Positions 2,002-39,208 of a DNA stretch of 64,000 nucleotides are shown here, in pieces (the first letter of the stretch is position 1; the number at the start of each line of letters is the position of its first letter). The notes beneath the pieces were generated by a model, which saw only the letters and a list, made by a program, of their open reading frames with translations, did not search any database and was not told the DNA's origin. Origin of the DNA: Archangium sp. Its GTDB lineage: Bacteria; Myxococcota; Myxococcia; Myxococcales; Myxococcaceae. The DNA is taken from assembly GCA_047600485.1 (NCBI GenBank), contig JASGKS010000001.1, positions 6,976,259 through 7,040,258 on the forward strand. Direction: 5' to 3'. Position numbers and translations under genes: made by a program.

Positions 2002-4746
2002 TCACTGGAGCAGGCTGAGCAGGAACTCCGTCGGCGTGCTGCGCAGCACTTCGACCGAGCACGACAGCTCCATGCCCAGATGCGAGAGCGAGCCCTTGCT
2101 CAACTGGAAGCGGCCTTCGCGCAGCTGAATCGCAGTGAGCTCGCGACCTGAAGTGACGTTGGTGACGAGACTCCAGCGCGCGGGCAGCTCGGGGTGCGTG
2201 GGGTCCTGCAGCGCGAGATGATCGAACGTCATCACCTGGCCCGTCGCCAGCCCCATGCCGGGGACATCGGCCTTCATGGTGATGCTCACCTGCGCGGTGA
2301 ACGGCAACGCCGAGTAGCCGACGTCAGGCGTCGCAAGCGGGTTGGTGAGCGCCTCCAGCACCACCGCGGTGAAGCTCGCCGACTCGCACGTGCGGCGCTC
2401 GACGCGACGCGAGCGATTCAAGATGTCGCGCGGGAACGGCATCGCCGCGAGCTCCGCCGACAACCCGCGAATGCCCGGCTCGAGCGAGCGCGTCTGCTTC
2501 AACACCACGCGCGCGGGAAACGGCGTTCCCATGCTGAGCGCCGGCCAGCCCTCGGGCACCTGACGGAACTCGAAGTCCAACACCTGTGTCGCTGACTGCT
2601 GCGCGACGGGCTTGCCGGTGTTCTCGCGCTCGAGCCACAGCGTGGTGACCGCCTTCGCGTGGCCGAACGTCTCGAGCAGCTCGGCGTCGGTGAGCAACAC
2701 GGTGCCCATCGGCACCAGCGTCGACGGCCGAATGCGCTCGATGACCGGAGTCGACGTTCCCGCTGCGAGCGTGACGCGATCGATTTCCGGCAGCGCGGTG
2801 GTGGTCGGGTTGGTGACGCTGACCGCTCCGGCTTGCACGTTGAGCTCCATCACCACCGTGCCGTTCTTCACGGTGCAGAGGAACACGCCGTTGCTCTTCT
2901 CCTTGTCGTCGTCGAAGCGTGCGTGCACCACCACCGCCATGTTTCCCGAGAGGTGGTCGATGTTCTCGAGCGCACGCTCTTCGAAGGCCTCGGCGGTCCA
3001 GTACGAGGCCCAGGTCTTCTTGATGGCCCACTCGATGGTCTGCTTCTGGTCGCCGCTGTTGGGCTGCAGCTGCGCGTCGAGGAAGCCGGTGTTCGAGTCG
3101 TAGAGGCCCGCGCCGTTGAAGCCCTCGATGTCTTCCGCGGTCGACGACGAGCGGAAGCGCAGGCCCTGCAGGTACGAGTAGTGGCCGAACTGCGCACGGA
3201 GCGCCGCGGTGAGGGTCGCGAGCGTGGTGGCGTTCATCGGCGTCTTGCGAATGAGCTGCTTCACGCCGCCGTCACGCACCAGGTCGCCGAGCGTGTCGCC
3301 GGGCGGGTGCGCGGCTGTGAATTCCTGCAGGAAGGTCTGATCAGCCGGAGTGGTGTGCGTCTCGTTGAATGACGTCTCGCCCTCGAGAACGAGGTAGCGC
3401 ACGCGTTGATCTTCGTTGAACCCCGGAGCGACCAGCATCGCCTCGAGCCGCGGCCGGAACTGCGCGAGGTGCTCGACGTACGGCCGAATGCTGATGGCGC
3501 CCACCGCGTCAGGCGTGGCGTTGGGAGCGCCCGCGAGCAACCCGAGATAGCCGGTCGCCTTGCCGCCGATGCCGGGCCGCAGCGTGTCGGAGTCGTCAGC
3601 CGAGAGCGTGCGCAGGTCGACGGTGTACGGGAGCGTGGCGATGTCGACCTGCGTGACCGCGGCCGCCGGCTTGCGCTGGCTCTGCAGCCACACCGAGTAC
3701 TGCGCTTCGCTGATGGGCTTGATGATCAACTGCCCGGGGCCGGTGGACTTCACGACCACCGGAGAGCGGAAGCGCGCGAGGTCGAGCAGCTCCTGATCAT
3801 CGATGACGCCCGCGCGATACGCGTTGGGAATGCCGCGGTTCTTCGCGAGCAGATTGAAGTGCGCCAGCGGCGTCTGCGGCACCGCGGTCACCACGCCCGC
3901 GCACTGCGGGAGGAAGTCGGGCACGTCTTCGAGCAGCAAGATGTCGGTCGAGGTCGTGTCGTCCGTCGACTCGCCACTTCGCTTCACGCGCAGCCGGCCC
4001 GCGGTGATGCCGTCGTTGTAGACCTCGAGCTCGCCCGGCGCGGTGAGGTCCTTCAGGCGGATGATGCGGTCGAAGTACTGCAGCTGCTTCGACTCGATGT
4101 CCTGCGCGATGACTTCCTGCTGCGGCGAGCGCACCACCCACACCACCTGCGAACCGATGCCCGCGGGCAACGTCTTCTCGAGCTCGGCGAAGAAGCGCAC
4201 CAGCTCGGCGTGTGACGGCGAGTCGGAGAACTCGAGCTGAAACGCCCAGCGCTCCGGCCGGTCTCCGCTCGCGATGACGTGAATCAACGTGCCGAGGCCG
4301 AACGCGCGCGGAGGAACGAAGAGGCCCAGGTCGTAGAAGCGCGGCGAGTAGAGGCGATCTCCGTCGACCCAGCGGAGGTCGAGCGGCAACACGGTCTCCT
4401 TCTTCGCCCACGCGTAGATGTCGGCGATGGTCGCGAACTCGTGGCCGGTGACGGGAACGATGCCCTCGCGTCCCGGGATGCGCTGGCCGTTGAGCAACCG
4501 GAACCAGTACCACTCGTCGTGCAGCGCGTAGAACGAGTTGTCGAGGTAGCGCACCGCCTCTTTGTCGCTGCCGAAGCCGGTGATGATGAACTTGCCCGAA
4601 GTGCGACCGTGCTCGGTGATGGCGAGCGCTTCGAAGTCGCTCACCGCTTTGATTTCGGTCTTCGCGTGGTCTTCGAAACCGTCGGTTCCCGGGCCCGGGC
4701 AAGCAGAGGTCACGGCCAGAACGAGGGCGAAAGCCAGTCGACGCAT
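2002..4746 (-). CDS. Exported lipoprotein with PEP/pyruvate-binding (PPDK_N-like) domain
   Basis: Signal peptide/lipobox MRRLAFALVLAVTSAC. Motifs RPGIGGKATGYLGLLAG and FRSSSTAEDIEGFNGAGLYDS resemble the GGKAANL / SSATAEDLP motifs of PEP-utilizing enzyme N-terminal domains. Start chosen at the internal Met preceding the signal peptide (the ORF track extends to 4806). Confidence 0.5.
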   Translation of the reverse strand: MRRLAFALVLAVTSACPGPGTDGFEDHAKTEIKAVSDFEALAITEHGRTSGKFIITGFGSDKEAVRYLDNSFYALHDEWYWFRLLNGQRIPGREGIVPVTGHEFATIADIYAWAKKETVLPLDLRWVDGDRLYSPRFYDLGLFVPPRAFGLGTLIHVIASGDRPERWAFQLEFSDSPSHAELVRFFAELEKTLPAGIGSQVVWVVRSPQQEVIAQDIESKQLQYFDRIIRLKDLTAPGELEVYNDGITAGRLRVKRSGESTDDTTSTDILLLEDVPDFLPQCAGVVTAVPQTPLAHFNLLAKNRGIPNAYRAGVIDDQELLDLARFRSPVVVKSTGPGQLIIKPISEAQYSVWLQSQRKPAAAVTQVDIATLPYTVDLRTLSADDSDTLRPGIGGKATGYLGLLAGAPNATPDAVGAISIRPYVEHLAQFRPRLEAMLVAPGFNEDQRVRYLVLEGETSFNETHTTPADQTFLQEFTAAHPPGDTLGDLVRDGGVKQLIRKTPMNATTLATLTAALRAQFGHYSYLQGLRFRSSSTAEDIEGFNGAGLYDSNTGFLDAQLQPNSGDQKQTIEWAIKKTWASYWTAEAFEERALENIDHLSGNMAVVVHARFDDDKEKSNGVFLCTVKNGTVVMELNVQAGAVSVTNPTTTALPEIDRVTLAAGTSTPVIERIRPSTLVPMGTVLLTDAELLETFGHAKAVTTLWLERENTGKPVAQQSATQVLDFEFRQVPEGWPALSMGTPFPARVVLKQTRSLEPGIRGLSAELAAMPFPRDILNRSRRVERRTCESASFTAVVLEALTNPLATPDVGYSALPFTAQVSITMKADVPGMGLATGQVMTFDHLALQDPTHPELPARWSLVTNVTSGRELTAIQLREGRFQLSKGSLSHLGMELSCSVEVLRSTPTEFLLSLLQ

Positions 4747-4894
4747 GGGAGGGTGGGATTCCCTCGCAAGACTGACACCATCACCGAGCGAAGACGAATC
4801 GAGCACTTAGGTTTGACCCGCCCTCAGAAATTCGCGGGTTGCTTCACACCCACGCCCATGAGGACTGGCGAAAAGTTCGGCAGCTCAGCATCCT

Positions 4895-6610
4895 TTGTCA
4901 ATGGTGCGGTGGTTCGGTTGGTTGACTGATCAGTTCGTTCCTCCCACCACTTCTGAAGAGCGAGCGTCGCGGTTCAGGTTCGGAGCGCAGGCGTGGATCA
5001 TCGCGTGGCCGCTCGCCATCGCGTGGACCATCGGCTCGGCGGTGCAGGGGCTGTGGCTCGGCGCGGCGATGAACCTGTTGATGGTGGTCATCGGCCCCAT
5101 CGCGTTGTGGGGCATGAAGCGCACCGCGTCGCTCACGCCGTGGTTCCAGATTTCGCTCGCGGGCGCGCTGTTGCTCTACGGCCCGGGCTCGCTGTCGCAG
5201 ACGCCCATCGAAGAGACCGCACTGTTCTTCGCGATGATCATTCCGCTGGTCGCGGGTTTTCTCTTCGGCGTCGCGAGCGCGTTCCGGTGGACGGTGGCGA
5301 CCGCCATCGCGACCATCGGTGCGCTGCTGCTCGCGCGGGAGGGCTACAGCATTCAGGCCACCGACCCCGCGCCGCTGCTCTCGAAGATCCTCAACATCCT
5401 CACCGCGCTGGTGATGACCGCGGGCTTCTCGGCGAGCTTCTTCATCGCGCAGCAGCGCGCGCTGGCTCGCGCCGAAGCGGCGAATCGCGCCAAGAGTCTC
5501 TTCCTCGCCACCATCAGCCACGAGATCCGCACGCCGATGAACGGAGTGCTCGGCATGACCGAGGTGCTCCTCACCGAGACGCGGGACGAGCGCACGCGCG
5601 AACAGCTCGGCGTGATTCAGCGCAGCGGCGAGCTGATGGTGTCGTTGATCAACGACCTGCTCGACCTCACCAAGCTCGAGGCGCAGAAGCTGAAGCTCGA
5701 GAGCGTCGACTTCGACGTGCACGCGCTGGTGGCCGACGTGGCGCGGCTGTTCGAAGCGCGCGCTCGCGAGAAGAACATCGCGCTCGTCGTGGGCATCGAG
5801 CCGGGCCTCGAAGCGGTGCGCAAGGGCGACCCGCTCCGGTTGCGTCAGGTGCTCTTCAACCTGGTCAGCAACGCGGTGAAGTTCACCGAGCGCGGCTCCA
5901 TCACCATCACCGTCTCCGCGCGCGCGGGGCAACTCCACTTCGCGGTGCACGACACCGGCATCGGCATCTCGGCTGAAGCGTTGCCGCGCTTGTTCTCGGT
6001 CTTCGAGCAGCAAGACGCGTCGACCACGCGGCGCTTCGGAGGCACCGGCCTCGGCCTCGCGCTCTCGAAGCAGCTGGTCTCTTTGATGGGCGGCACGCTC
6101 GAGGTCACCTCGGTGGCGGGCGTCGGTTCGCACTTCTGGTTTCAGCTCGCGCTCGAGAAGGGCGACCCGTCGCAGCTGCGCACGGTGGTGCCCGCTCCGC
6201 GGCCGGCGAGCCCGCGCGTGCTGGTGGTCGACGACAACCCCATCAACCTCCGCGTCGCGCGCACACTGGTCGAGAAGGCCGGGTTCCGCGTCGACGCCGT
6301 CGCGAGCGGCGAAGAGGCCGTGAAGCTCGCAGCGCAACACGACTACTTCGTGGTGCTGATGGACTGCCACATGCCGGCGATGGACGGCTTCGAGGCGACC
6401 ACGCAGATCCGCGAGCTGACCGGTCCCCGCGGGCGCGTGCCGGTGGTGGCGCTCACCGCGTCGACCAGTGAGGAAGACTTCGAAGCCTGCCGTCGCTCGG
6501 GCATGAACGAGGTGCTCACCAAGCCCATCTCGCTCGAGGCGCTCGCGCGCTCGCTGGCGCTGGTGACGTTGCCGACGAAGCGCGCTTCGAAGACCGCCGA
6601 CATCAACTGA
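4895..6610 (+). CDS. Hybrid sensor histidine kinase / response regulator (membrane-bound)
   Basis: N-terminal TM segments. HisKA H-box ATISHEIRTPMNGVLGM. HATPase_c G-box GGTGLGLALSKQLV. C-terminal REC domain VLVVDDNPINLRVA...VLMDCHMPAMDGFE...TKP. Confidence 0.9.
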   Translation: MSMVRWFGWLTDQFVPPTTSEERASRFRFGAQAWIIAWPLAIAWTIGSAVQGLWLGAAMNLLMVVIGPIALWGMKRTASLTPWFQISLAGALLLYGPGSLSQTPIEETALFFAMIIPLVAGFLFGVASAFRWTVATAIATIGALLLAREGYSIQATDPAPLLSKILNILTALVMTAGFSASFFIAQQRALARAEAANRAKSLFLATISHEIRTPMNGVLGMTEVLLTETRDERTREQLGVIQRSGELMVSLINDLLDLTKLEAQKLKLESVDFDVHALVADVARLFEARAREKNIALVVGIEPGLEAVRKGDPLRLRQVLFNLVSNAVKFTERGSITITVSARAGQLHFAVHDTGIGISAEALPRLFSVFEQQDASTTRRFGGTGLGLALSKQLVSLMGGTLEVTSVAGVGSHFWFQLALEKGDPSQLRTVVPAPRPASPRVLVVDDNPINLRVARTLVEKAGFRVDAVASGEEAVKLAAQHDYFVVLMDCHMPAMDGFEATTQIRELTGPRGRVPVVALTASTSEEDFEACRRSGMNEVLTKPISLEALARSLALVTLPTKRASKTADIN

Positions 6611-18468: not shown

Positions 18469-20448
18469 TCAGAGACAGCTGCAGCCGCTCGCCATCGACG
18501 CTGAGTTTCGCGGAGTCAGCGGCGCGACCACGAAGTCACTCGAGTTGTCGTTGGTGTCGATGCACGCCGTCGCAGCACCAGAAGAATCACGGCGGAACAT
18601 CGCATCGGTGTTGACCAGGTGCGGAGGCGCGTTCTGCGCCACGCCCGCTCCCTCACGACAATTCGCCGTCGAACCGAAGCCCACGAGGTCGACCACCGTC
18701 GCGCTCGCGGCCATCGTCGGGCAGCCCGTGCTGTCGACCGCGACGGCCACCGCGCTGTTGGCGAGCAGCAACTTGCCGGTGGTCTGAGACATGTCGGTAT
18801 TGGTGACGGCATCGGGGGTCGGCAACGCGACACCGGTCCCCGACTGCGCGAAGCGCACGAGGAAGAAACCACCGGGCGGAATCGACGCTCCCGCCGCGAA
18901 CGCGTGCGAGACGTTGAAGGAAGTGGTGTTGGTCGCCGACGCGTACTGCAGCGACCACCCACTCAAGCTCGCCGCGGTCGTTCCACGGTTGTGCAGCTCG
19001 ACGTAGTCGGCGTTCGGAGTCGTCGCGCCAGTGCCACCGCGTCCGTACACCTGACTGATGACCACCGCGGGCGCGCACGCCGCGCCATTGAACGTCGCCG
19101 TGTTGTTCGGAGGCGCCACCGGCGCAGCACGACGGTCGGTCACGCTGCTCATCACGGTCACCGTGTACTGCGTGCCCGGCACCTGAGCCGCGGTGGTGAG
19201 CTGCGCGACGCGCGGGCTCGCGAGTGACGCGGCGCTGATTCCGAGCGGGCTCGAGGCACCGTCGATGATGGAGAACGCTCCGGCCTGCACCGTCGACGGT
19301 TCCAAATCTCGATTGAAGTTCACCAACACGCGCGAACCGGTCGGCGCATCAGCGCTCAGCACGCGCGGCGCAGGACACGTGCTCTGCATCACTTCCGCCA
19401 TCGTCCACGCGGAAGGAAGCGCTGACGGACCCGCGCGCCACAGCGGCGCGTTCGGCAACACCACGGTGCAGCCCGGCGCGAGCGACTGCTGACTCATGAG
19501 CGCGGTCGGCAATCGCAGCCGCAACGCGAGACCGCCATCGACCGTGCCCGACGAATCGAGCGACACGGCCTGGTAGCCGTTCGAAGGGAACGACGGGTCG
19601 GCCGCGACGTTCGCCACCAACGACACCAGCCGGCTCTCGTACTCATCGAGGCGCGTCGACTGCGTGAAGTCGATGGTGTCGATGGCGCTCGTGAAGCCGA
19701 GGAGCGACTGGCCCGTCGCGGTGCGCATCACGTCGGCATCGAGAATCAATCGCAGCCCCGCCACGCGACCGACGTGGTGCACGTCGAGCGTGAGGCGGTC
19801 TCCGGTGCTCAGACCACCCGCGATCATCGTCGGGTCGAGCGCGACGAAGATTCCCGGGCCCGCCGCGCTGCCTTGAATGAAGAAGCCCGGACCGTCATCG
19901 ACGCCCGCATCGGGAACGAGCGGCTTGAGCGCCGTCACGAGTGCTCCGACCACCGGCATGCTCACCATGCCGCCGTCGCCGAAATCGGCTTCGAGGCGAA
20001 CGGCGCGCAGTTGATCATCGACCGAGCCGCCATCGGTGGAGCCTGCGTCGGTGCCGGCGTCGGTCCCCGCGTCGTCGGTGCCCGCATCGTTGGAGCCCGC
20101 GTCGTCACCGCCGTCGTCGACGCCGCCTCCGCCGGTCGAACCGCCACCGCCGCCACCACCGCCACCGCCGCTCACGGCTCCGCCACCGCCAGTGCCTGCG
20201 TCATCGCCACCGCCGGTTGCGCCGCCGCCACCCGTCGTTCCACCGCCGCCGCCGCCGCCCGTGACTCCGCCGCCTCCACCACCGGTCGTGCTCGTCGCAC
20301 CGCACACGCCGTCGAAACAGCGGTCAGGCGCGACGCAATCGGAGTCCTTCGAGCAGTGGTAGCGCAGCCCGCTCAAGTCGACGGGCGACGGATCACACGC
20401 GCTGATCAGCACGAGGACGAGCCACGAGGAGCGCCAGGAGAAACGCAC
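18469..20448 (-). CDS. Lipoprotein with poly-Gly/DAG low-complexity region and C-terminal lamin-tail-domain (LTD)-like module
   Basis: Lipobox VLISAC. The G-rich run is encoded by about 20000-20300. The C-terminal YVELHNRGTTAASLSGWSLQY...IPPGGFFLVRF matches the LTD pattern (xELyN...dLsGW.L...g..f....i.aggfllV). Confidence 0.6.
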   Translation of the reverse strand: MRFSWRSSWLVLVLISACDPSPVDLSGLRYHCSKDSDCVAPDRCFDGVCGATSTTGGGGGGVTGGGGGGGTTGGGGATGGGDDAGTGGGGAVSGGGGGGGGGGSTGGGGVDDGGDDAGSNDAGTDDAGTDAGTDAGSTDGGSVDDQLRAVRLEADFGDGGMVSMPVVGALVTALKPLVPDAGVDDGPGFFIQGSAAGPGIFVALDPTMIAGGLSTGDRLTLDVHHVGRVAGLRLILDADVMRTATGQSLLGFTSAIDTIDFTQSTRLDEYESRLVSLVANVAADPSFPSNGYQAVSLDSSGTVDGGLALRLRLPTALMSQQSLAPGCTVVLPNAPLWRAGPSALPSAWTMAEVMQSTCPAPRVLSADAPTGSRVLVNFNRDLEPSTVQAGAFSIIDGASSPLGISAASLASPRVAQLTTAAQVPGTQYTVTVMSSVTDRRAAPVAPPNNTATFNGAACAPAVVISQVYGRGGTGATTPNADYVELHNRGTTAASLSGWSLQYASATNTTSFNVSHAFAAGASIPPGGFFLVRFAQSGTGVALPTPDAVTNTDMSQTTGKLLLANSAVAVAVDSTGCPTMAASATVVDLVGFGSTANCREGAGVAQNAPPHLVNTDAMFRRDSSGAATACIDTNDNSSDFVVAPLTPRNSASMASGCSCL

Positions 20449-26060: not shown

Positions 26061-29000
26061 TCACGAGCGACGGCGTCTCACGCCAAGCAGCGCGAGCGCG
26101 AGCCACGCCACGCTTGCGTCGAATGCAGTGCAGCCGCAGCCAGGTCGAACGTCGGAGCCTCCTCCGCCCGCACCGCCGCCGGTTTCCCCACCGCCGGTCG
26201 CGGTCCCGCCGCCCATCGTGCTGCCGCCTCCTGTTGCAGTGCCGCCTCCCGTCGCTGAGCCGCCGCCGGTCGCTGAGCCGCCGCCGGTCGAGCCGCCGCC
26301 GCCACCGACAACTGCTTCGCTCGCACAGGTCGCCGAGCAGCCGTCGCCGCTCATCTGATTTCCGTCGTCACACTGCTCGCCCGTCTGCACGATGGTGTCT
26401 CCGCAGCGCGCGAGGTTGCACGCGTTCGAGCAGGCGTCGTCGTTCAGCATGTTGCCGTCGTCGCACTGCTCGCCCGTCTGGACGATGGTGTCTCCGCAGC
26501 GCGCAGTCGTGCACGCGTTCGAGCAGTCGTCGTTGTTCACCATGTTCCCGTCGTCACACTGCTCGCCTGACTGAAGGATGGTGTCTCCGCAGCGCCGCAG
26601 GTTGCACGCGTTGGAGCACGAGTCGTCGTTCACGCCGTTGCCGTCGTCGCACTGCTCGGTGCCTTGCACGAACGTGTCGCCGCAGCGCGCGACCGTGCAT
26701 GCGTTGGTGCACGCATCGATATTGCTGGTGTTGCCGTCGTCACACGGCTCGGTGCCCTGCACGAAGCCGTCGCCGCAGGTCGCGAGTGCGCAGACGTTGG
26801 TGCACGCGTCTTCGTTCACGGTGTTCGCGTCGTCGCAGGCCTCGGGAGGTTGCGTGAAGCCGTCACCACACCGCGCGAGCGTGCACGCGTTGGTGCACGC
26901 GTCTTCGTTCACCGAGTTCGCGTCGTCGCACTGCTCGCCTGTTTGCCGAATTCCATCTCCGCAGCGCGGGAGCGTGCACGCGTTGGTGCAGCCGTCGTCG
27001 TTGACCATGTTTCCGTCGTCGCACTGCTCGGCGCCCTGGCGGAATCCGTCGAGGCACATCGCGGTGACGAGGGTCGAGACAGGAGAGCCGGCGATGGGGC
27101 CCTGGTTCAACGCCACGATGGTCGCCGTCCACGTTCCAGCCGAGGTCGGCGTGTAGACCACGTCGTAGGTGCCGTCGTTTCGATCGACGATGGTGGCGCC
27201 GAAGGTGGTGGTGCCGTCGGTGGCGATGGCTCCGAAGAGCGAAGCGAAGCCGCTGGCGTGCACGTCTTCGCCGCAGCTGCCGCGCGACTGCATGCGCACC
27301 GTGACGGTCTGCCCCAGAATCGCGGTGCTCGGCGTCGGCGGCAGCACCATGCTCGCGGCGGTCGGAATGCTCGAGCGGACGCTCACGTTCGACACCACGG
27401 CCGACGTCGGTCCTGCGAAGCGCCCCGACGCGACAGCGAGCAAGGCGCCTCGCGCGAAGAGCGACTCCATCTCTGACTGAAGAAGCTCGACCTCGAGCTC
27501 GGGCGCGTAGAACGGTTCGCCCGGCACGATGATGTACGTGCGCAGCCAGCCCTTCGCAGGACCCGTGCGCGTCTCGTCACGAGTCCAGGTGATGCGAATC
27601 GGTGTCGTCGCGGCGAGCTCGGTGCCGAACGTCGACTGACACGCAGACCACCACGGCCAGGCGCAGTAGCGCTCGCGCAGGACTCGCGCCCACCCGCGCT
27701 GTGCGACCGCGTGATTCGCGCTGTTCGGCAGCGGCCCTCGGGTCATGACGGCGACGTGGCCACCGATGGGATCGCCGCCTCCGCTGCTGACGTCGTCGAA
27801 CTCGATCGCGAGGCTGTTCGGAATGTTCTCGTAGCCCAGCACCCCACTGTCGACCGGGAGCGGCAGCGCGTCGGCGAGCACGACCGAGATGCCGGAGGCC
27901 GTGGAAGAAGTGAGCACCGTGAAGTCGAGCTGAAAGTCGTGCGACACGTCGATGCGATCGTTGAAGAAGACCGCGTTCGGGAGCAGGCGACCATCAAAGC
28001 CACCATCCAGGCCTGCACCGGGGCCGGCGTCGTATGCAGGGCCGGCAGCGAGCTCAAAGCCGCCATCGGTGAGCACGGTCGCGTGGCCGAGCAACGTCTG
28101 CGGTGGCGCAATGGTTCTCGTCGGTGCCGAGCAGGCCGGAGGAATCGCGTCGACGAGCTCGAACTGGAACTCGGGCTCGTGCAGTCCGCGATGCGCGTAG
28201 AAGAGATCGACCGGGTAGTTGCGACCCGTCGCGAGCCCGTTCGCCGCGGCGAAGGCATCGAGGGGAACCGCGAGCGTCTGGCGCGAATGCACACCGCCGA
28301 GGTCGGCCAGCAACTTGCCGTTCCAGAAGACCCACAGGTCGTCGGCCGACGCGAAATACAACGTGGTGCCCGGGACCCAGGGCATCTGCTCGTGGAGCTC
28401 CCACGTGAAGTTGCGATTGGGATTCGGCTCGGCCGCAGATGGAGTGCGTTGATCGAGAGGGTAGAAGTGCGAGCTCGTGAATCGCGTCACGCCGGTGGTG
28501 CTCACGTTTCCGCTGAGCACGAGGTCGAGTGGCCGTACCAGCGTCGCTCCTGCGTCGGGAGAATCGTCCCACCATGCGTTGAAGCTGCTCGGCGAGGAGA
28601 CGGTGGTGAGCGTGGTCGGCTGAAACACCGGCTTGTTGTTCGCGCCGAGCGTGGAGGCGACGAACGCCGGCACGTCATCTCCGTTCGCGGACGAGAAGTC
28701 GGCTTGCGTCGTGCGGAAGTCGCGGAACGTCCCGGTGACGGTGCGAATCGGCCCCGGCGTGATGGCGAAGGTCGCGCAACAGTTGCCGAAGCTCGAAGCG
28801 CTGAGCCCGCTGACCGTGAAGCACGCGAAGTTCGCGGTCGAGAACGTGGGAGCGCCATAGTTCACGACGGGCCGACCGGGGCTCCACGTCACCAGCCAAC
28901 CTGCATCGGCGTTGGTCGAGAGCGGCGTGATGACCATTCCAGTGGGGAGCGGCGTGTTGCTGAGCGTCAGGGTGTCGCCCCCGGCTCGATTCGAACGCGC

Positions 29001-29867
29001 CGTGAGCAGCAGAGCGGCCTCGAGTCCCTGCGGAGTGTTCGCCTGCTCGCCACAGCCAGCGGTGAAGACCACTGAGGTTGGGGGCGACGCGACGACGTTG
29101 AAGATCAGATCGAGCGGAACCACCGAACCACCACTCGCGGTCAGCAACACCTGCACCGAGGCTTCGCCCAACGTGGTCGGAGTCCACTGCAGCAGGCCCG
29201 TCGGACTGATGGTCATGCCAGCAGGCGCGGCGACCGCCAGACCCGAGCTCGCGATGGGAGCGAACGACAGACTCACCGTCTCGTTCGGAGGCGCGGTGAC
29301 CGGCAGGGAGATGCTGTTCGACTGGTTCTGCACCAGGCCCATTCGAAGCACCGCGGTGGTGCGCGCCGAACGCGGCGACGAGAGCAGCAACGCGCTGCGC
29401 ATCAGGAACGGGCGAGTCGAATTCCCATCTTGCAGTGGCGTGACACGACAGCAGTCGTTCACCTCGATGGGCGTCGAGCTCGCGGTGAGAGGAACCACCA
29501 CCTGCAGCGTCGCGTTGGCGTACAGGCGGTCATTGGCGGCGTCGGTGGCAACCACCTGGAGAGGAATGGTCTGCACCGTCGCGCCGCCGTTGATGCGGAG
29601 CGAGAAGTCGTTGATGAGCGCTCCGGGGTTCGCGTTGGCGCCAGCCGGCGTGTAGGTCGCGCTCCGCCGCAGGGCGAGCTGCACGTTCACGTTGAAGCGC
29701 GCCTGGGTCGACGAGACGAACGTCGTGTCACGCACCCAGTCGATGGTTCCGCCAGCGAAGCGGGTCGCCAGGGCAGGGCACGCGAAGAACAGCACGGCGA
29801 CCACGACCAGTCGAAGAGCGCGCACGGCGGCGCAGCCTAGCAAGGCGGTCGAGACGACGATGGCCAA
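26061..29867 (-). CDS. Large secreted protein: PA14/fibro-slime-like domain + 9 Myxococcus cysteine-rich repeats + Gly-rich linker + MYXO-CTERM-like tail
   Basis: Motif DDLWVFWNGKLLADLGGVHS (PA14/fibro-slime-like). Nine repeats RCGDG(F/I)xQxGEQCDDGNxxNxDxCxNAC. Then GGGSATGGGS repeats. The protein ends GCGCTAFDASVAWLALALLGVRRRRS (Cys motif + TM + basic tail). Confidence 0.7.
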   Translation of the reverse strand: MAIVVSTALLGCAAVRALRLVVVAVLFFACPALATRFAGGTIDWVRDTTFVSSTQARFNVNVQLALRRSATYTPAGANANPGALINDFSLRINGGATVQTIPLQVVATDAANDRLYANATLQVVVPLTASSTPIEVNDCCRVTPLQDGNSTRPFLMRSALLLSSPRSARTTAVLRMGLVQNQSNSISLPVTAPPNETVSLSFAPIASSGLAVAAPAGMTISPTGLLQWTPTTLGEASVQVLLTASGGSVVPLDLIFNVVASPPTSVVFTAGCGEQANTPQGLEAALLLTARSNRAGGDTLTLSNTPLPTGMVITPLSTNADAGWLVTWSPGRPVVNYGAPTFSTANFACFTVSGLSASSFGNCCATFAITPGPIRTVTGTFRDFRTTQADFSSANGDDVPAFVASTLGANNKPVFQPTTLTTVSSPSSFNAWWDDSPDAGATLVRPLDLVLSGNVSTTGVTRFTSSHFYPLDQRTPSAAEPNPNRNFTWELHEQMPWVPGTTLYFASADDLWVFWNGKLLADLGGVHSRQTLAVPLDAFAAANGLATGRNYPVDLFYAHRGLHEPEFQFELVDAIPPACSAPTRTIAPPQTLLGHATVLTDGGFELAAGPAYDAGPGAGLDGGFDGRLLPNAVFFNDRIDVSHDFQLDFTVLTSSTASGISVVLADALPLPVDSGVLGYENIPNSLAIEFDDVSSGGGDPIGGHVAVMTRGPLPNSANHAVAQRGWARVLRERYCAWPWWSACQSTFGTELAATTPIRITWTRDETRTGPAKGWLRTYIIVPGEPFYAPELEVELLQSEMESLFARGALLAVASGRFAGPTSAVVSNVSVRSSIPTAASMVLPPTPSTAILGQTVTVRMQSRGSCGEDVHASGFASLFGAIATDGTTTFGATIVDRNDGTYDVVYTPTSAGTWTATIVALNQGPIAGSPVSTLVTAMCLDGFRQGAEQCDDGNMVNDDGCTNACTLPRCGDGIRQTGEQCDDANSVNEDACTNACTLARCGDGFTQPPEACDDANTVNEDACTNVCALATCGDGFVQGTEPCDDGNTSNIDACTNACTVARCGDTFVQGTEQCDDGNGVNDDSCSNACNLRRCGDTILQSGEQCDDGNMVNNDDCSNACTTARCGDTIVQTGEQCDDGNMLNDDACSNACNLARCGDTIVQTGEQCDDGNQMSGDGCSATCASEAVVGGGGGSTGGGSATGGGSATGGGTATGGGSTMGGGTATGGGETGGGAGGGGSDVRPGCGCTAFDASVAWLALALLGVRRRRS

Positions 29868-29902: not shown

Positions 29903-30598
29903 TCAGGGCTGCACGACGGCCGGGAAGTTCGCCGAGCCCTGAATCGTCGCGGTGCACGAGGTCGCGACTTCGCACTTCGTCACCATCGAGTTCACCAGCC
30001 AGCTCAACGTCACCGTGCCGTTCGCGCTCACCGTCTGCGTCGGAACCGGAGTGGTGAGCGTCGTGCCGAGCGAAGTGCCTTCCGCCCACGTCGCCTCTGC
30101 TCCACCGTTCGGCGTGAACGAGACCTTGTAGCTGCTGGTGCCCTGAGACGGCGGAGAGGTCAGCCAGCGCAGCATGTAGTTCGAGCGCAGCGTCGCGGGC
30201 GGCGAGTCGGCGATGGCGGTGCCGAGCTCGAGCGTCGTGACCGTCATGTTCATGGTCGTCACTTCATCGGTGAAGATGATCTCTCGCGGCGTCGACTTCA
30301 TGTCGGGCGTGATGAGGAAGCCGGGGAACTGGCACTTGTCGGCTTCGTTCATCTGCATCGGGTCGAAGCTGCCGGCCGAGGCCGCGACGTTCTGACCGTC
30401 GAGCGTGGCGCGCAGGTTCTTCACCGCGCCGCACGCCGTCTTGGTGTTGTCGTACGTGAGAATCACCTGGAGCGCTCCGCCGTTGCGGCGCTGAGCGGTG
30501 ATGACCGGGCTGATCAACTTGCCCAACTCCGGCGTGGCGGGACCACAGCCAGCGAGGAGCGCGAGCGTCACGAAGGCAGCGAGAGCACGTGAATTCAT
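29903..30598 (-). CDS. Lipoprotein, unknown function
   Basis: Signal peptide/lipobox LALLAGC. Ser/Thr-rich. Confidence 0.5.
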   Translation of the reverse strand: MNSRALAAFVTLALLAGCGPATPELGKLISPVITAQRRNGGALQVILTYDNTKTACGAVKNLRATLDGQNVAASAGSFDPMQMNEADKCQFPGFLITPDMKSTPREIIFTDEVTTMNMTVTTLELGTAIADSPPATLRSNYMLRWLTSPPSQGTSSYKVSFTPNGGAEATWAEGTSLGTTLTTPVPTQTVSANGTVTLSWLVNSMVTKCEVATSCTATIQGSANFPAVVQP

Positions 30599-30619: not shown

Positions 30620-31570
30620 TCAGCGCGTTCCGACCACCAGTTCCGCGATGGCGCGACTGATGCGGTGCCCGAGCTTCTGCTCGACGTCGAGGTAGATGGG
30701 CGAGCTGTTCAGCTCGAGGAACACGAAGCGCCCGTCAGTCGTGCGCTTGATGTCGATGCCCGCGAAGCGCAGTCCGCATTTCCTTGCGGCGTCTCGACAG
30801 TGTTGGACCACCGCGCTCGGCAGCTCGACTTCTTCGTAGCGCGCGTCACCCGACGAGTAGACGGGGTCGTCGCGAAAATCGAGGTGCTGCGACGGAGTGC
30901 GAATCGCGACGCACGAGACGATTTCGTCTCCCGCGAGCATCACGCGGAGATCGTCACCGTCGATGCGCTCTTGAAAGATGACCGGCGAATTGCGGACCGC
31001 GTCGAGCTCGTCGGCGCTCTCGAGGTCGGCGAGGCGACGGGTGATGGCTCCGCCCATGAGCGGCTTGAAGATGACGTCGTGCGTGTCCTTCGCGAATGCG
31101 CGCACCGCGTCGGGGTCGTTGCTGATCAACGTGCGGGGCACGCTCGCGCCGACGCTGCGCAGCACGTTGAGCTGAAACGGTTTGTACTGGAGCACGCTCC
31201 CGGCTTGCGGCGGGTTGATCAGCCGCGCGCCTCGGTCCTGCAACGCGAGGAGCCACGCGACGAAGTACGACGCGCGCTCGCGTTCCTGCATGTAGCGGAT
31301 GAACCAGTCTTCGTAGAGCACGAGCTCCTGGTCTTCTTCGCGTTCGAACGACGGCGCGTACGGAGCGGGGATGCTGCGCAGGTAGAAGCCGCGCACGTCG
31401 GTGAGGTCGACGCCGCGGTAGAGGAATTTGCCGTCGAGCTCGCTGAGCGGAAGACCTTCGTCGAGCGCGTCGCTGCGGATCAGCACGTCGTCTGCGCCGA
31501 GCGCGCGCACTTCCTTCGCCACGGCGTGGACCTGGAGATCATCGTCAGTGCCAAAGATGCCGACCCGCAT
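30620..31570 (-). CDS. ATP-grasp family peptide ligase (RimK-like; candidate graspetide macrocyclase)
   Basis: RimK/glutathione-synthetase-like ATP-grasp architecture (~320 aa); specific catalytic motifs were not confirmed from memory. Start taken at MRVGIFG. Divergent from the repeat-peptide gene. Confidence 0.75.
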   Translation of the reverse strand: MRVGIFGTDDDLQVHAVAKEVRALGADDVLIRSDALDEGLPLSELDGKFLYRGVDLTDVRGFYLRSIPAPYAPSFEREEDQELVLYEDWFIRYMQERERASYFVAWLLALQDRGARLINPPQAGSVLQYKPFQLNVLRSVGASVPRTLISNDPDAVRAFAKDTHDVIFKPLMGGAITRRLADLESADELDAVRNSPVIFQERIDGDDLRVMLAGDEIVSCVAIRTPSQHLDFRDDPVYSSGDARYEEVELPSAVVQHCRDAARKCGLRFAGIDIKRTTDGRFVFLELNSSPIYLDVEQKLGHRISRAIAELVVGTR

Positions 31571-31640
31571 GACGTGTTCGCGGGGCAAATGTACTCTGCG
31601 CGCGCGTCATTTCTCTCGTCGTCATCAAGGAGCGCTCCAC

Positions 31641-32177
31641 ATGAAGGTGAAGGGTCACAAGAGCCTGCCGAAGTACGAGCTCGGGAAGAACAAGAAGAAG
31701 GAAGAGAAGAAGATGACGACGATGGCGCTCGGCGAAGAGAGCGCGAAGAAGCCCGGCAAGCCGGGTCAGGTCACGACCAAAGCGCTCGGCGAAGAGGGCA
31801 ACGCGAAGCCGGGAAAGCCGGGCGGGACGTTCACCACGATGGCGGTTGGTGAGGAGAGCAACACCAAGCCGAAGCCTCCGGGCGGCACGTTCACCACGAT
31901 GGCGGTGGGTGAAGAGGGCGGTGCTCCGAACAAGCCCGGCAAGCCTCCGACGATGACCACGCTCGCGGTCGGTGAAGAGGGCGGTGCGCCGAACAAGCCG
32001 GGGAAGCCCGACGTCACGACGCTCGCCGTCGGTGAAGAGGGCAACGACAAGCCGACTAAACCCGGGAAGCCTGACGTCACGACGCTCGCCGTCGGTGAAG
32101 AAGGCAACAAGCCGAAGCCGCCGGGTGGAACGTTCACCACCATGGCGCTCGGTGAAGAGGGCACAGGCTCGCGCTGA
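31641..32177 (+). CDS. Graspetide (omega-ester-containing peptide) precursor with 8 tandem TTxxxGEE core repeats
   Basis: RBS-like aaggag 10 nt upstream of ATG 31641. Lys-rich leader MKVKGHKSLPKYELGKNKKKEEKK. Eight roughly 20-aa units (TTMALGEES, TTKALGEEG, TTMAVGEES, TTMAVGEEG, TTLAVGEEG x3, TTMALGEEG) separated by KPGKPG-type linkers. The ORF-track entry 31428..32177 is the same frame with an upstream false start. Confidence 0.65.
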   Translation: MKVKGHKSLPKYELGKNKKKEEKKMTTMALGEESAKKPGKPGQVTTKALGEEGNAKPGKPGGTFTTMAVGEESNTKPKPPGGTFTTMAVGEEGGAPNKPGKPPTMTTLAVGEEGGAPNKPGKPDVTTLAVGEEGNDKPTKPGKPDVTTLAVGEEGNKPKPPGGTFTTMALGEEGTGSR

Positions 32178-37619: not shown

Positions 37620-38687
37620 ATGGCATCCGCTCCCGTCATCGCTTCCGTCGCTCGCGCGCTCCCGCCGCACTACCACTCGCAGGCAGAGCTCTCGCAGGGC
37701 CTTCAGGACTACTGGCGCGAAGGCGGCCACCACTTCAACAAGAGCCGCGTCGATTCGTTGCACGCCTCGGTGCAGGTGCGCGGGCGGCACCTCGCGATTC
37801 CGATGGCCGACTACCCGCCGCTCAACACCTTCGAGAAGCGAAACCAGGTGTGGATTCGCGAGGCGGTGAAGCTCGGTGAACAGGCCGTGCGCGACGCGGT
37901 GAAGAAGGCCGGGCTCTCGCTGCAAGACATCGACGCGTTGTGCTTCACGAGCATCACCGGTCTCGCGACGCCGAGCATCGACGCGCGATTGGTGAACAAG
38001 CTCGGGCTGCGCAACGACGTGAAGCGGCTTCCGATTTTCGGACTCGGCTGCGTCGCGGGAGTGGCTGGCACCGCGCGCGTGAGCGACATGCTGCGCGGTT
38101 TTCCCGGGCACAACGCGGTGCTGCTCTCGGTCGAACTGTGCAGCCTCACCGTGCAGCGCGATGACCTCTCGCTCTCGAACATCATCGCGTCGGGGCTGTT
38201 CGGCGACGGCGCTTCGGCAGTCGTGGTGCGCGGAGGCGACGCTCCCGGCGATGGACCGCGCGTGCTCGCGAGCGAATCGGTCTTCTACCCAGACACCGAA
38301 GACGTGATGGGTTGGGACTTTCTCGATTCGGGTTTCAAGGTCGTGCTCTCGGCGCGCGTGCCGGAGATGGTGCTCACCAACGTGCGCAACAACGTCGACG
38401 GTTTCTTGAGCAAGCACGGCGTGAAGCGCAGCGACATCAAGCACTGGGTCGCGCACACCGGCGGGCCGAAGGTGCTCGAGGCGTTCGAGCAGGCACTCGA
38501 GCTTCCACCCGACGCGCTCGCGCGAAGCTGGGAGTCGCTGCGCTCGGTCGGAAATCTCTCGTCGTCGTCGGTGCTCTACGTGCTCGGTGACCTGCTCGAC
38601 TCGGGCGTCGCGAAGAAGGGCGACGTCGGCCTGATGATGGCGATGGGCCCGGGCTTCTGCTCGGAGCTGGTGCTGCTGAAATGGTGA
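37620..38687 (+). CDS. Type III polyketide synthase (chalcone/stilbene synthase family)
   Basis: Catalytic Cys in FGLGCVAGVAG, His in WVAHTGGPKVL, Asn in VGNLSSSSVLYVL. Length 355 aa. Confidence 0.9.
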   Translation: MASAPVIASVARALPPHYHSQAELSQGLQDYWREGGHHFNKSRVDSLHASVQVRGRHLAIPMADYPPLNTFEKRNQVWIREAVKLGEQAVRDAVKKAGLSLQDIDALCFTSITGLATPSIDARLVNKLGLRNDVKRLPIFGLGCVAGVAGTARVSDMLRGFPGHNAVLLSVELCSLTVQRDDLSLSNIIASGLFGDGASAVVVRGGDAPGDGPRVLASESVFYPDTEDVMGWDFLDSGFKVVLSARVPEMVLTNVRNNVDGFLSKHGVKRSDIKHWVAHTGGPKVLEAFEQALELPPDALARSWESLRSVGNLSSSSVLYVLGDLLDSGVAKKGDVGLMMAMGPGFCSELVLLKW

Positions 38688-39208
38688 ACTCGCTCTGGCT
38701 CTACACGGCGCTCATCGCGCTGGTGGGCGTGGAGCGGCTCGTCGAACTTCGACTCTCGGTGCGCAACGCGAAGTGGGCGTTCGAGCGCGGCGCGAAAGAG
38801 TACGGTCAGGGCCACTACCCGTTCATGACCGTGTTCCACACCGCGTTCCTCGTGGCGTGCGTGGCGGAGCCGTGGCTCTTCGACCGGCCCTTCGTTTCGC
38901 CGTGGGGCTTCCTCGCGCTCGCGTTCGCCGTCGGCGCGCAGCTGTTGCGGTACTGGGCCATCACCACGCTCGGCACGCGGTGGAACACGCGCGTCATCGT
39001 GCTGCCGAAGGGAGAGCAGTTGGTGAGCGGCGGGCCGTACCAATTCGTGCGGCACCCGAACTACGTCGCGGTGTGCGTCGAGCTGCTGGCGTTGCCGCTC
39101 ATTCACGGAGCGTTCGTGACCGCGGTGGTCTTCACGATTGGAAATGCGCTGCTCTTGCGCGTGCGCATCAAGGTCGAGGAGACGGCGCTCGGTCTGCGCG
39201 CGGAGTAG
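38681..39208 (+). CDS. Isoprenylcysteine carboxyl methyltransferase (ICMT)-family membrane methyltransferase
   Basis: Multi-TM protein with C-terminal GGPYQFVRHPNYVAVCVELLALPL motif typical of the ICMT/PEMT family. Overlaps the PKS stop by 7 nt. Confidence 0.8.
   Translation: MVNSLWLYTALIALVGVERLVELRLSVRNAKWAFERGAKEYGQGHYPFMTVFHTAFLVACVAEPWLFDRPFVSPWGFLALAFAVGAQLLRYWAITTLGTRWNTRVIVLPKGEQLVSGGPYQFVRHPNYVAVCVELLALPLIHGAFVTAVVFTIGNALLLRVRIKVEETALGLRAE

Follow-up and report, generated by a model that had tools for sequence, protein, structure and literature searches.

A candidate surface adhesin of Archangium sp. with a six-domain head, a cysteine-rich stalk and a MYXO-CTERM-type tail

The question raised by this locus is what kind of protein is encoded by a long open reading frame (ORF) located near a probable graspetide locus in the genome of Archangium sp., and whether the two are functionally connected. 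The ORF lies on a 64-kb stretch of DNA (assembly GCA_047600485.1, contig JASGKS010000001.1, positions 6,976,259 to 7,040,258), which is referred to here as the window and has a GC content of about 67%. An earlier note on this DNA listed the ORF at 26061–29867 with a product of 1268 amino acids (aa). The ORF is present, and its third-codon-position GC content (GC3) of 0.84 gives it a codon-position GC pattern of the coding type. We propose that its product is a Sec-exported, adhesin-type cell-surface protein consisting of a head, a stalk, a tether and an anchor in the form of a MYXO-CTERM-type tail, and we regard this explanation as probable, with appreciable room for doubt. Surface proteins of the MYXO-CTERM type, typified by TraA, are a known class, and the protein is an uncharacterized member of it. 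To our knowledge, myxobacteria encode dozens of MYXO-CTERM proteins, and roles are known for only a few of them (TraA, MepA and MstC). The present protein adds a well-resolved example of this type, in which the head joins two lectin-type modules.

The earlier note was largely right in kind. It described a three-part protein with a PA14/fibro-slime module, a Cys-rich repeat region and a Gly-rich linker, followed by a C-terminal sorting tail. This division left about 700 aa undescribed, which form a He_PIG immunoglobulin (Ig) domain, further Ig-like domains, a lectin fold of the L type and a filamin domain (Table 1). The head, located N-terminal to the Cys-rich repeats, comprises about 900–920 aa, is all-beta and contains six domains. 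It was modelled with AlphaFold2 (AF2) from a 25-sequence alignment with a mean predicted local distance difference test (pLDDT) score of 78.9, and this model replaced the one obtained from a 4-sequence alignment (pLDDT 48). Foldseek comparison of the whole 923-aa model with the PDB returned generic multi-Ig matches only, with TM-scores of 0.1–0.4, and was judged uninformative. The first domain, modelled with a pLDDT of about 85–90, gives no match to PF24907 in the Pfam scan of the protein itself; at the equivalent position this profile is passed by the collinear relatives P0010, P0007 and P0017 with 48.8, 41.8 and 33.6 bits, respectively (cutoff 28.1). The second domain passes He_PIG (PF05345) with 31 bits against a cutoff of 24 at aa ~180–247. 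It reaches 24.1 bits with PF24908 (cutoff 27.8), a profile which the collinear relatives pass (34 bits). The third domain contains the Cys pair C363/C364, which is conserved in the corresponding columns of alignments A1 and A2. The sixth domain passes the filamin profile (PF00630) with 32.5 bits against a cutoff of 26.9 at aa 850–930, and the family profile also matches filamins in the PDB.

Two of the six head domains belong to carbohydrate-recognition families, namely the fibro-slime/PA14-like domain and the L-type lectin fold. The fibro-slime assignment made in the earlier note was borne out: TIGR02148 matches aa 484–568 with 59.4 bits against a cutoff of 45, and the motif quoted there, DDLWVFWNGKLLADLGGVHS (aa 509–528), falls within the match. 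The core of the domain, ASADDLWVFWNGKLLADLGGVH, includes an Asp pair at aa 509–510. Among 25 relatives the core pattern [SA][SA]DD[LM]W[VI]F.NG.L..DLGGVH is essentially invariant, and it is kept in the Archangium protein. The Asp pair of the TraA PA14 domain has been proposed as a calcium/carbohydrate site, and the equivalent calcium site in a flocculin binds carbohydrate (PMC3325183).

The fifth domain has the legume-lectin beta-sandwich fold, as the family profile matches legume lectins in the PDB at E = 2.5e-23. The relatives P0010, P0015 and P0007 pass the Pfam profile PF00139. An ungapped alignment pairs the stretch AIEFDDVSSGGGDPIGGH of the Archangium protein with AVEFDTFSNGDWDPKGRH of Robinia bark agglutinin (1fny). 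In legume lectins, the residues E/D/D/H of the metal loop bind metal, and the Asp of the ADG motif and an Asn are sugar ligands. The metal-loop residues E689, D691, D699 and H704 are retained and aligned to E/D/D/H of 1fny, and this metal loop is conserved across the 25 relatives. The earlier designation of the protein as a candidate surface adhesin is reasonable, and it is strengthened by the finding of the L-type lectin fold.

Within the lectin fold, a Cys...W...Cys loop at aa 729–752 (about 27612–27683, minus strand) is common to the myxobacterial clade and absent from the wider family. It reads RYCAWPWWSAC in the Archangium protein, DCFWPYASC in P0003 and GCTWLDFGC in P0002, and has low confidence in the AF2 model. 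The loop may be a clade-specific, disulfide-closed binding loop.

The head is followed by the Cys-rich stalk. Nine repeats of about 33 aa had been counted previously; regular-expression search, Tandem Repeats Finder and the HMMER match stretches all give eight repeats of 31 aa. The unit (93 nt) has the pattern C-x10-C-x10-C-x3-C, which amounts to 32 Cys residues over the eight units. The expected match to TIGR02232 was obtained with 209.7 bits against a cutoff of 20.8, and PF13948 (DUF4215) reaches 150.2 bits against a cutoff of 27, each in eight stretches. Nucleotide identity between the units is 54–85%, with units 6 and 7 forming the closest pair, which implies that the repeat expansion is not very recent. 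The Gly-rich linker, also named in the earlier note, is present with a period of 18 nt (6 aa) in 6.3 copies at 26191–26303 (Tandem Repeats Finder).

Several results weigh against the proposed reading of the head, stalk and tail. The Pfam PA14 profile (PF07691) reaches only 15 bits on the protein, with a cutoff of 24. Since 15 of the 21 family members match PF07691 at E ≤ 0.01, membership of the protein in the PA14 family is indirect, through its relatives, and a PA14-only family profile retrieved no solved PA14 structure by sequence. For the lectin fold, PF18483 remains sub-threshold (14.6–17.6 bits, cutoff 78.3), and PF00139 gives no match to the protein in the Pfam scan. Both sugar-ligand positions are Ser when aligned to 1fny (Asn to Ser, and ADG to ASG), and the strand corresponding to YVGFTAS is divergent and reads LLAVASGRF. 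The sequence therefore suggests that the metal site of the lectin fold is kept and the canonical monosaccharide site is lost or altered; the domain may be structural or bind something else. The stalk can be called rigid only by analogy, because no solved structural homolog was found for the Cys-rich repeat region. The tail gives 7.1–8.7 bits with TIGR03901 (TIGR03901.2) when isolated, under the cutoff of 20, and no match at E ≤ 1 was obtained on the full protein. With TIGR03382 (GC_trans_RRR), a sister model also named MYXO-CTERM by NCBI, it scores 13.1, 14.3 or 15.8 bits depending on the flank length, just under the cutoff of 15.85. Furthermore, the window contains no gene for a myxosortase, a CPBP protease or a type II secretion system (T2SS).

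A MYXO-CTERM signal is defined by a Cys signature (often GCGC), a transmembrane (TM) helix without charge or Pro, and an Arg cluster (Haft preprint; PMC11980579). The tail of the Archangium protein reads PGCGC-TAFDAS-VAWLALALLGV-RRRRS-stop. All qualitative features are therefore found, namely the GCGC signature, the uncharged Pro-free helix and the Arg cluster, placed at the extreme C-terminus of a protein that starts with a signal peptide. In the earlier note the tail was called MYXO-CTERM-like and was expected to be recognized by TIGR03901; the sequence and its qualitative features uphold the first part, and the second did not hold. The tails of the orthologs likewise fail TIGR03901, with 11.8–16.4 bits. 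The positionally orthologous tails of P0001 and of the ortholog at locus L006 pass TIGR03382 with 18.2 and 22.2 bits, respectively. Because of the qualitative features, the near-threshold TIGR03382 score and the passing tails of the orthologs, the MYXO-CTERM-like reading of the tail still holds. TIGR03901 is a short and divergent model that has to be curated lineage by lineage (Haft preprint). The lesson for annotation, in line with its author's warning, is that real MYXO-CTERM tails peculiar to a lineage escape this model.

Elsewhere in the window, at 18469–20448 on the minus strand, a 659-aa protein with Lamin-tail and Big_5 Ig domains ends in ...SASMASGCSCL-stop. A GCxC-type signature closes the chain, neither a hydrophobic helix nor an Arg cluster follows it, and the end of a convergent gene is 10 bp distant. 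The terminus may be a MYXO-CTERM-like motif that has been truncated, or one of the CaaX-like type.

Lipidation of Cys, cleavage by the myxosortase MrtX and passage through the T2SS have been established on TraA; the MrtX-dependent cleavage needs the conserved Cys residues, and surface display takes place via the T2SS (PMC11980579). By analogy with TraA, we infer the pathway, localization and ligand of the Archangium protein as follows. After Sec export, the tail would retain the protein in the inner membrane. The signature Cys, C1244 or C1246, would be lipidated, and the helix with the Arg tail would be cut off by MrtX. Through the T2SS the protein, held by its lipid, would then reach the outer face of the outer membrane. 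In this position the eight repeats would serve as a disulfide-stiffened spacer keeping the head off the cell, and the head would bind a glycan or another polymer, whether on prey, on a substrate, in the matrix or on neighbouring cells. Because it retains the invariant Asp pair, the PA14-like domain is more likely to bind than the lectin fold, which has lost the canonical sugar-ligand Asp and Asn.

The N-terminus of the protein was assigned with the help of its orthologs. The first in-frame codons of the ORF read LAIVVSTALLGCAAV-RALRLVVVAVLFFACPALA-TRF. The GTG codon at 29825 is the probable true start, giving a protein of 1254 aa, because the N-termini of the orthologs align there (alignment A1 and DNA). 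The signal peptide MRALRLVVVAVLFFACPALA is predicted to be cut before TRFAGGTIDW, and its region forms a helix at residues 2–13 in the AF2 model. The N-terminus could also be read as that of a lipoprotein, through ALLGC (counted from the TTG start) or FFAC; this was rejected, because the orthologs show an ordinary signal peptide in the alignment and no Cys at that position.

In many non-myxobacterial and eukaryotic relatives, the motif A-[ST]-H-F-[RA]-Y-G-T sits directly after the signal peptide. It opens the mature chain of P0007, P0010, P0017, P0021, P0027, P0036 and P0046 (alignment A3), so that the His would be residue 2 of the mature chain in those relatives. The myxobacterial clade has no N-terminal His, and the Archangium protein reads ATRFAGG. 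A role like that of lytic polysaccharide monooxygenases, considered for the N-terminal His of the relatives (A-T-H-F...), is inapplicable to this clade, in which the position is R, V or L.

Close orthologs are rare. No record identical to the protein was found, whether it was taken from the TTG or from the GTG start. Seven orthologs were found, with identities of 34–41%, and all belong to Myxococcaceae/Archangiaceae. This distribution and the 67% GC of the window point to a Myxococcota host. Three come from a word-indexed search of an index of 5.8 billion proteins, and four are loci among 185,579 species genomes, all in metagenome-assembled genomes labelled Myxococcaceae, Archangiaceae, Archangium or uncultured Myxococcales. 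One ortholog is labelled "fibro-slime domain-containing protein" by NCBI. Each ortholog has two Cys-rich units, in contrast to eight in the Archangium protein, and the linkers of the orthologs are DAG- or GG-rich. All complete orthologs (L001, L002 and L006) terminate in [ST]GCGC...helix...RR.RR. Since its stalk is so much longer than theirs, the protein lends itself to experiments on the influence of stalk length and head type on adhesion range.

One of the orthologs, P0003 (891 aa; locus L002, called gene at 3884–6559), is an N-terminally truncated call. The missing first ~200 aa were found by tblastn just upstream in another frame (L002, 3216–3818), suggesting that the gene is frameshifted, misassembled or a pseudogene.

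The closest known likeness is to TraA (MXAN_6895) of Myxococcus xanthus and its paralog MXAN_4924, which share with the Archangium protein a signal peptide, a PA14-type head, tandem Cys-rich repeats and a tripartite tail (PMC3325183). The TraA repeats, which define TIGR04201, have been proposed to form a rigid stalk in a FLO-like architecture (PMC3325183). This shared logic would also suit a homotypic kin-recognition receptor of the TraA kind, acting in outer-membrane exchange or a related cell–cell fusion, but we consider such a role improbable. The repeats belong to TIGR02232, with no match to the TraA-type TIGR04201 at E ≤ 1, and the gene has no adjacent traB or OmpA-like partner; its neighbours are a LysR regulator gene downstream on the opposite strand and, upstream, the genes of a lipoprotein and an ATP-grasp enzyme. 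The six-domain head of about 900 aa, with its extra L-type lectin fold and filamin domain, is set apart from TraA by description, and it is common to non-myxobacterial and eukaryotic proteins, unlike the variable domain of TraA. The tail also fails the TIGR03901 model. Even the paralog MXAN_4924, with its TraA architecture, has no role in outer-membrane exchange (PMC3325183). Because of the different repeats, the missing traB neighbour and the different head, the protein is not a member of the TraA family, although by analogy it would work like TraA or the flocculins. The location of the gene might instead suggest a coupling to the graspetide locus, in which the protein would be co-transcribed and serve as a receptor, display scaffold or target for the modified peptide. 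On the minus strand, the genes for the ATP-grasp enzyme, the lipoprotein and the adhesin candidate follow one another with gaps of 21 nt and 35–77 nt, and the scan for promoters and terminators found no such site, and nothing decisive, between the three. Consensus scans of this type are, however, weak evidence in a myxobacterium. The gene was previously described as directly adjoining the graspetide locus, but the 231-aa lipoprotein gene separates it from the ATP-grasp gene, and the graspetide precursor gene is divergent, on the other strand. When 12 proteins of the window were searched by tblastn against six ortholog loci, no synteny was found for the ATP-grasp, lipoprotein, kinase, short-chain dehydrogenase/reductase and LysR genes, and none of the six has an ATP-grasp, lipoprotein or kinase neighbour. 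A functional tie to the graspetide locus, as implied in the earlier note, was for this reason rejected and seems very unlikely to us. Co-transcription may still occur, but the synteny results exclude a functional link that is conserved. Since no ortholog adjoins an ATP-grasp gene, the adjacency looks coincidental and should not be taken as a functional link.

The remaining alternatives concern the anchor. A degenerate or inefficient tail would leave the protein as a released component of the matrix or slime, in which the head and the acidic repeats cross-link polysaccharide. This is the most serious of the alternatives, though still unlikely. It would fit the scores of the tail under both curated cutoffs, the shedding of TraA into the medium by the T2SS once the MYXO-CTERM tag is removed (PMC11980579), the finding that the fibro-slime proteins of Fibrobacter are most abundant in the extracellular medium (PMC4668043), and the twelve DUF4215 repeats carried by a secreted adhesive-trail protein of a diatom. 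A purely secreted protein would, however, have no need of a conserved C-terminal helix and Arg cluster, and no qualitative feature of the signal, GCGC included, is missing from the tail. All complete orthologs share the tail, and in two of them it passes TIGR03382. The failure of the curated models could also be taken to mean that the tail is an unprocessed stop-transfer anchor of a periplasmic protein held C-terminally in the inner membrane, and a hydrophobic helix followed by RRRRS does fit the positive-inside rule. To this we assign only a slight chance. A lectin, Ig and Cys-rich ectodomain of about 120 kDa with a Gly tether of 50 aa is what one expects of a surface-displayed protein and not of a periplasmic one, GCGC stands directly before the helix and is conserved in the orthologs, and the eukaryotic relatives are plasma-membrane ectodomains. 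A lipid-anchored, adhesin-type surface protein is thus the explanation we favour.

Similar arrangements are known from other adhesins. The fibro-slime proteins of Fibrobacter succinogenes and Dictyostelium, whose domain model TIGR02148 the Archangium protein passes, are surface or extracellular proteins implicated in cellulose adhesion; they differ from the Archangium protein in host, other domains and anchoring. In Fibrobacter, the adhesion to cellulose is mediated by fibro-slime proteins (PMC4668043), evidence that applies to the whole proteins and not to the domain. L-type lectin modules are found in SraP of Staphylococcus aureus, Aap of S. epidermidis and YwfG of Lactococcus, which likewise combine a head, repeats and a C-terminal sorting signal. 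Their anchoring is of the Gram-positive LPXTG/sortase type, their identity to the Archangium protein is only 10–16%, and the canonical sugar-ligand Asp/Asn are absent from the latter. In the yeast flocculins and Epa adhesins (Flo1/Flo5), a PA14 head with a DD calcium motif is carried on a repeat stalk with a C-terminal lipid anchor signal, in this case for glycosylphosphatidylinositol (GPI). The flocculin analogy has been drawn for TraA (PMC3325183). These are proteins of eukaryotes whose stalk is glycosylated and rich in Ser/Thr and whose anchor is GPI, and the likeness is one of analogy. The profiles PF24907 and PF24908, which the N-terminal domains of the relatives match, are named after SibA-E, the integrin-beta-like Sib proteins of Dictyostelium, which are substrate-adhesion receptors. 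According to the literature, SibA has a VWA domain and talin-binding NPxY motifs; the Archangium protein has neither.

The less ordinary aspect of the protein is that its complete head cassette is kept across kingdoms. The word-indexed search had given three relatives. An exhaustive search of 1.84 billion representative proteins with a profile of the body only made a large family visible, with 7,966 matches at E ≤ 1e-3 and 462 at E ≤ 1e-30. Among the top 150 matches, 47 align collinearly over virtually all of the ~920-aa body. The Pfam order in the collinear relatives is SIBA-E_N, Ig_SIBA-E_2nd, PA14, Lectin_legB and Filamin, all above threshold. Many of the full-body relatives are 4,000–4,900 aa long with about 5% Cys. 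One of them, P0154, is encoded on a 311-kb contig with 52% GC next to a mitochondrial-carrier gene and an RCC1/WD40 gene, which identifies it as eukaryotic. The giant eukaryotic relatives, P0154 included, have a signal peptide, the same head throughout, an Ig/filamin array, a region with 11–14% Cys, a single TM segment and a cytoplasmic tail of ~270 aa, so that a TM segment and tail take the place of the MYXO-CTERM-type signal of the Archangium protein. Their shared layout supports the logic of a receptor with a distal head and a proximal anchor. In other bacterial relatives, MBG repeats follow the head. Across the family, therefore, a conserved head cassette sits distally on differing stalks and anchors.

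A more far-reaching interpretation is that the head of ~920 aa forms one adhesion cassette, deeply conserved and not described before, which has moved between bacteria and protists and is always placed distally on a C-terminally anchored stalk. The cassette would contain the SibA-E_N-like domain, two Ig domains, the PA14/fibro-slime domain, the L-type lectin fold and the filamin domain. It would be carried by Ig and Cys-rich regions with a TM segment and cytoplasmic tail in eukaryotes, by MBG repeats in other bacteria, and by TIGR02232 repeats with a MYXO-CTERM-type tail in the Myxococcaceae/Archangiaceae clade. The expansion of the stalk from two to eight units would be adaptive, a tuning of reach, and the cassette would be a recognition module common to soil predators and amoebae and spread by horizontal transfer. 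We put this forward tentatively, as a possibility on balance doubtful. If true, a mobile adhesion module would be relevant to the recognition of surfaces, and of one another, by soil predators and amoebae.

The genes of several eukaryotic relatives, encoding proteins of ~4,000–4,500 aa, are intronless. These are the genes of P0154 (locus L007, 6001–19500), P0009, P0012, P0015, P0019 and P0024.

Table 1. Features of the adhesin candidate and of the neighbouring graspetide locus, in window coordinates
Feature	Position	Strand	Residues	Remarks
Whole ORF	26061..29867	-		1268 codons + stop; TTG start as listed
Sec-type signal peptide MRALRLVVVAVLFFACPALA	29766..29825	-		read from sequence; aligns with ortholog signal peptides
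Head domain 1, beta-sandwich	29385..29762	-	36-161	collinear with SIBA-E_N (PF24907) of relatives
Head domain 2, He_PIG / SibA-E second Ig-like	29091..29348	-	~174-259	
Head domain 3, Ig-like beta domain	28758..29078	-	~264-370	all-beta block in AF2 model
Head domain 4, fibro-slime / PA14-like	28152..28748	-	374-572	opens at RDF motif
Head domain 5, L-type (legume) lectin fold	27372..28121	-	583-832	
Head domain 6, filamin/ABP280-type Ig repeat	27063..27326	-	848-935	
Stalk, 8 tandem 31-aa Cys-rich acidic repeats	26313..27056	-	938-1185	
Gly-rich low-complexity linker	26154..26312	-	1186-1238	GGG[ST]AT-type hexapeptides
Tripartite MYXO-CTERM-type signal	26064..26153	-	1239-1268	DVRPGCGC / TAFDASVAWLALALLGV / RRRRS
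Predicted lipoprotein	29903-30598	-		231 aa (MNSRALAAFVTLALLAGC...); between ATP-grasp gene and adhesin candidate
ATP-grasp RiPP-maturase-like gene (RiPP, ribosomally synthesized and post-translationally modified peptide)	30620-31588	-		two genes upstream of adhesin candidate
Probable multi-core graspetide precursor	31641-32177	+		~178 aa; starts MKVKGHKSLPKYELGKNKKKEEKK; ~8 repeats TT[ML]A[LV]GEEG...KPGKP

The best NCBIfam match of the ATP-grasp enzyme is TIGR04187 with 127.9 bits, far under the cutoff of 350. The lipoprotein has no Pfam or NCBIfam match. The precursor gene is transcribed divergently from the ATP-grasp gene. The wider window encodes Ser/Thr kinases, a type III polyketide synthase (PKS), an ICMT-family methyltransferase, a peptidoglycan-binding chitinase-like protein and an extracytoplasmic function (ECF) sigma factor. 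At 37620–39208 on the plus strand, the type III PKS gene, which is chalcone-synthase-like, is followed by the overlapping gene of the ICMT-family methyltransferase. The pair is unrelated to the adhesin candidate and presumably resembles loci of the alkylresorcinol/alkylpyrone type.

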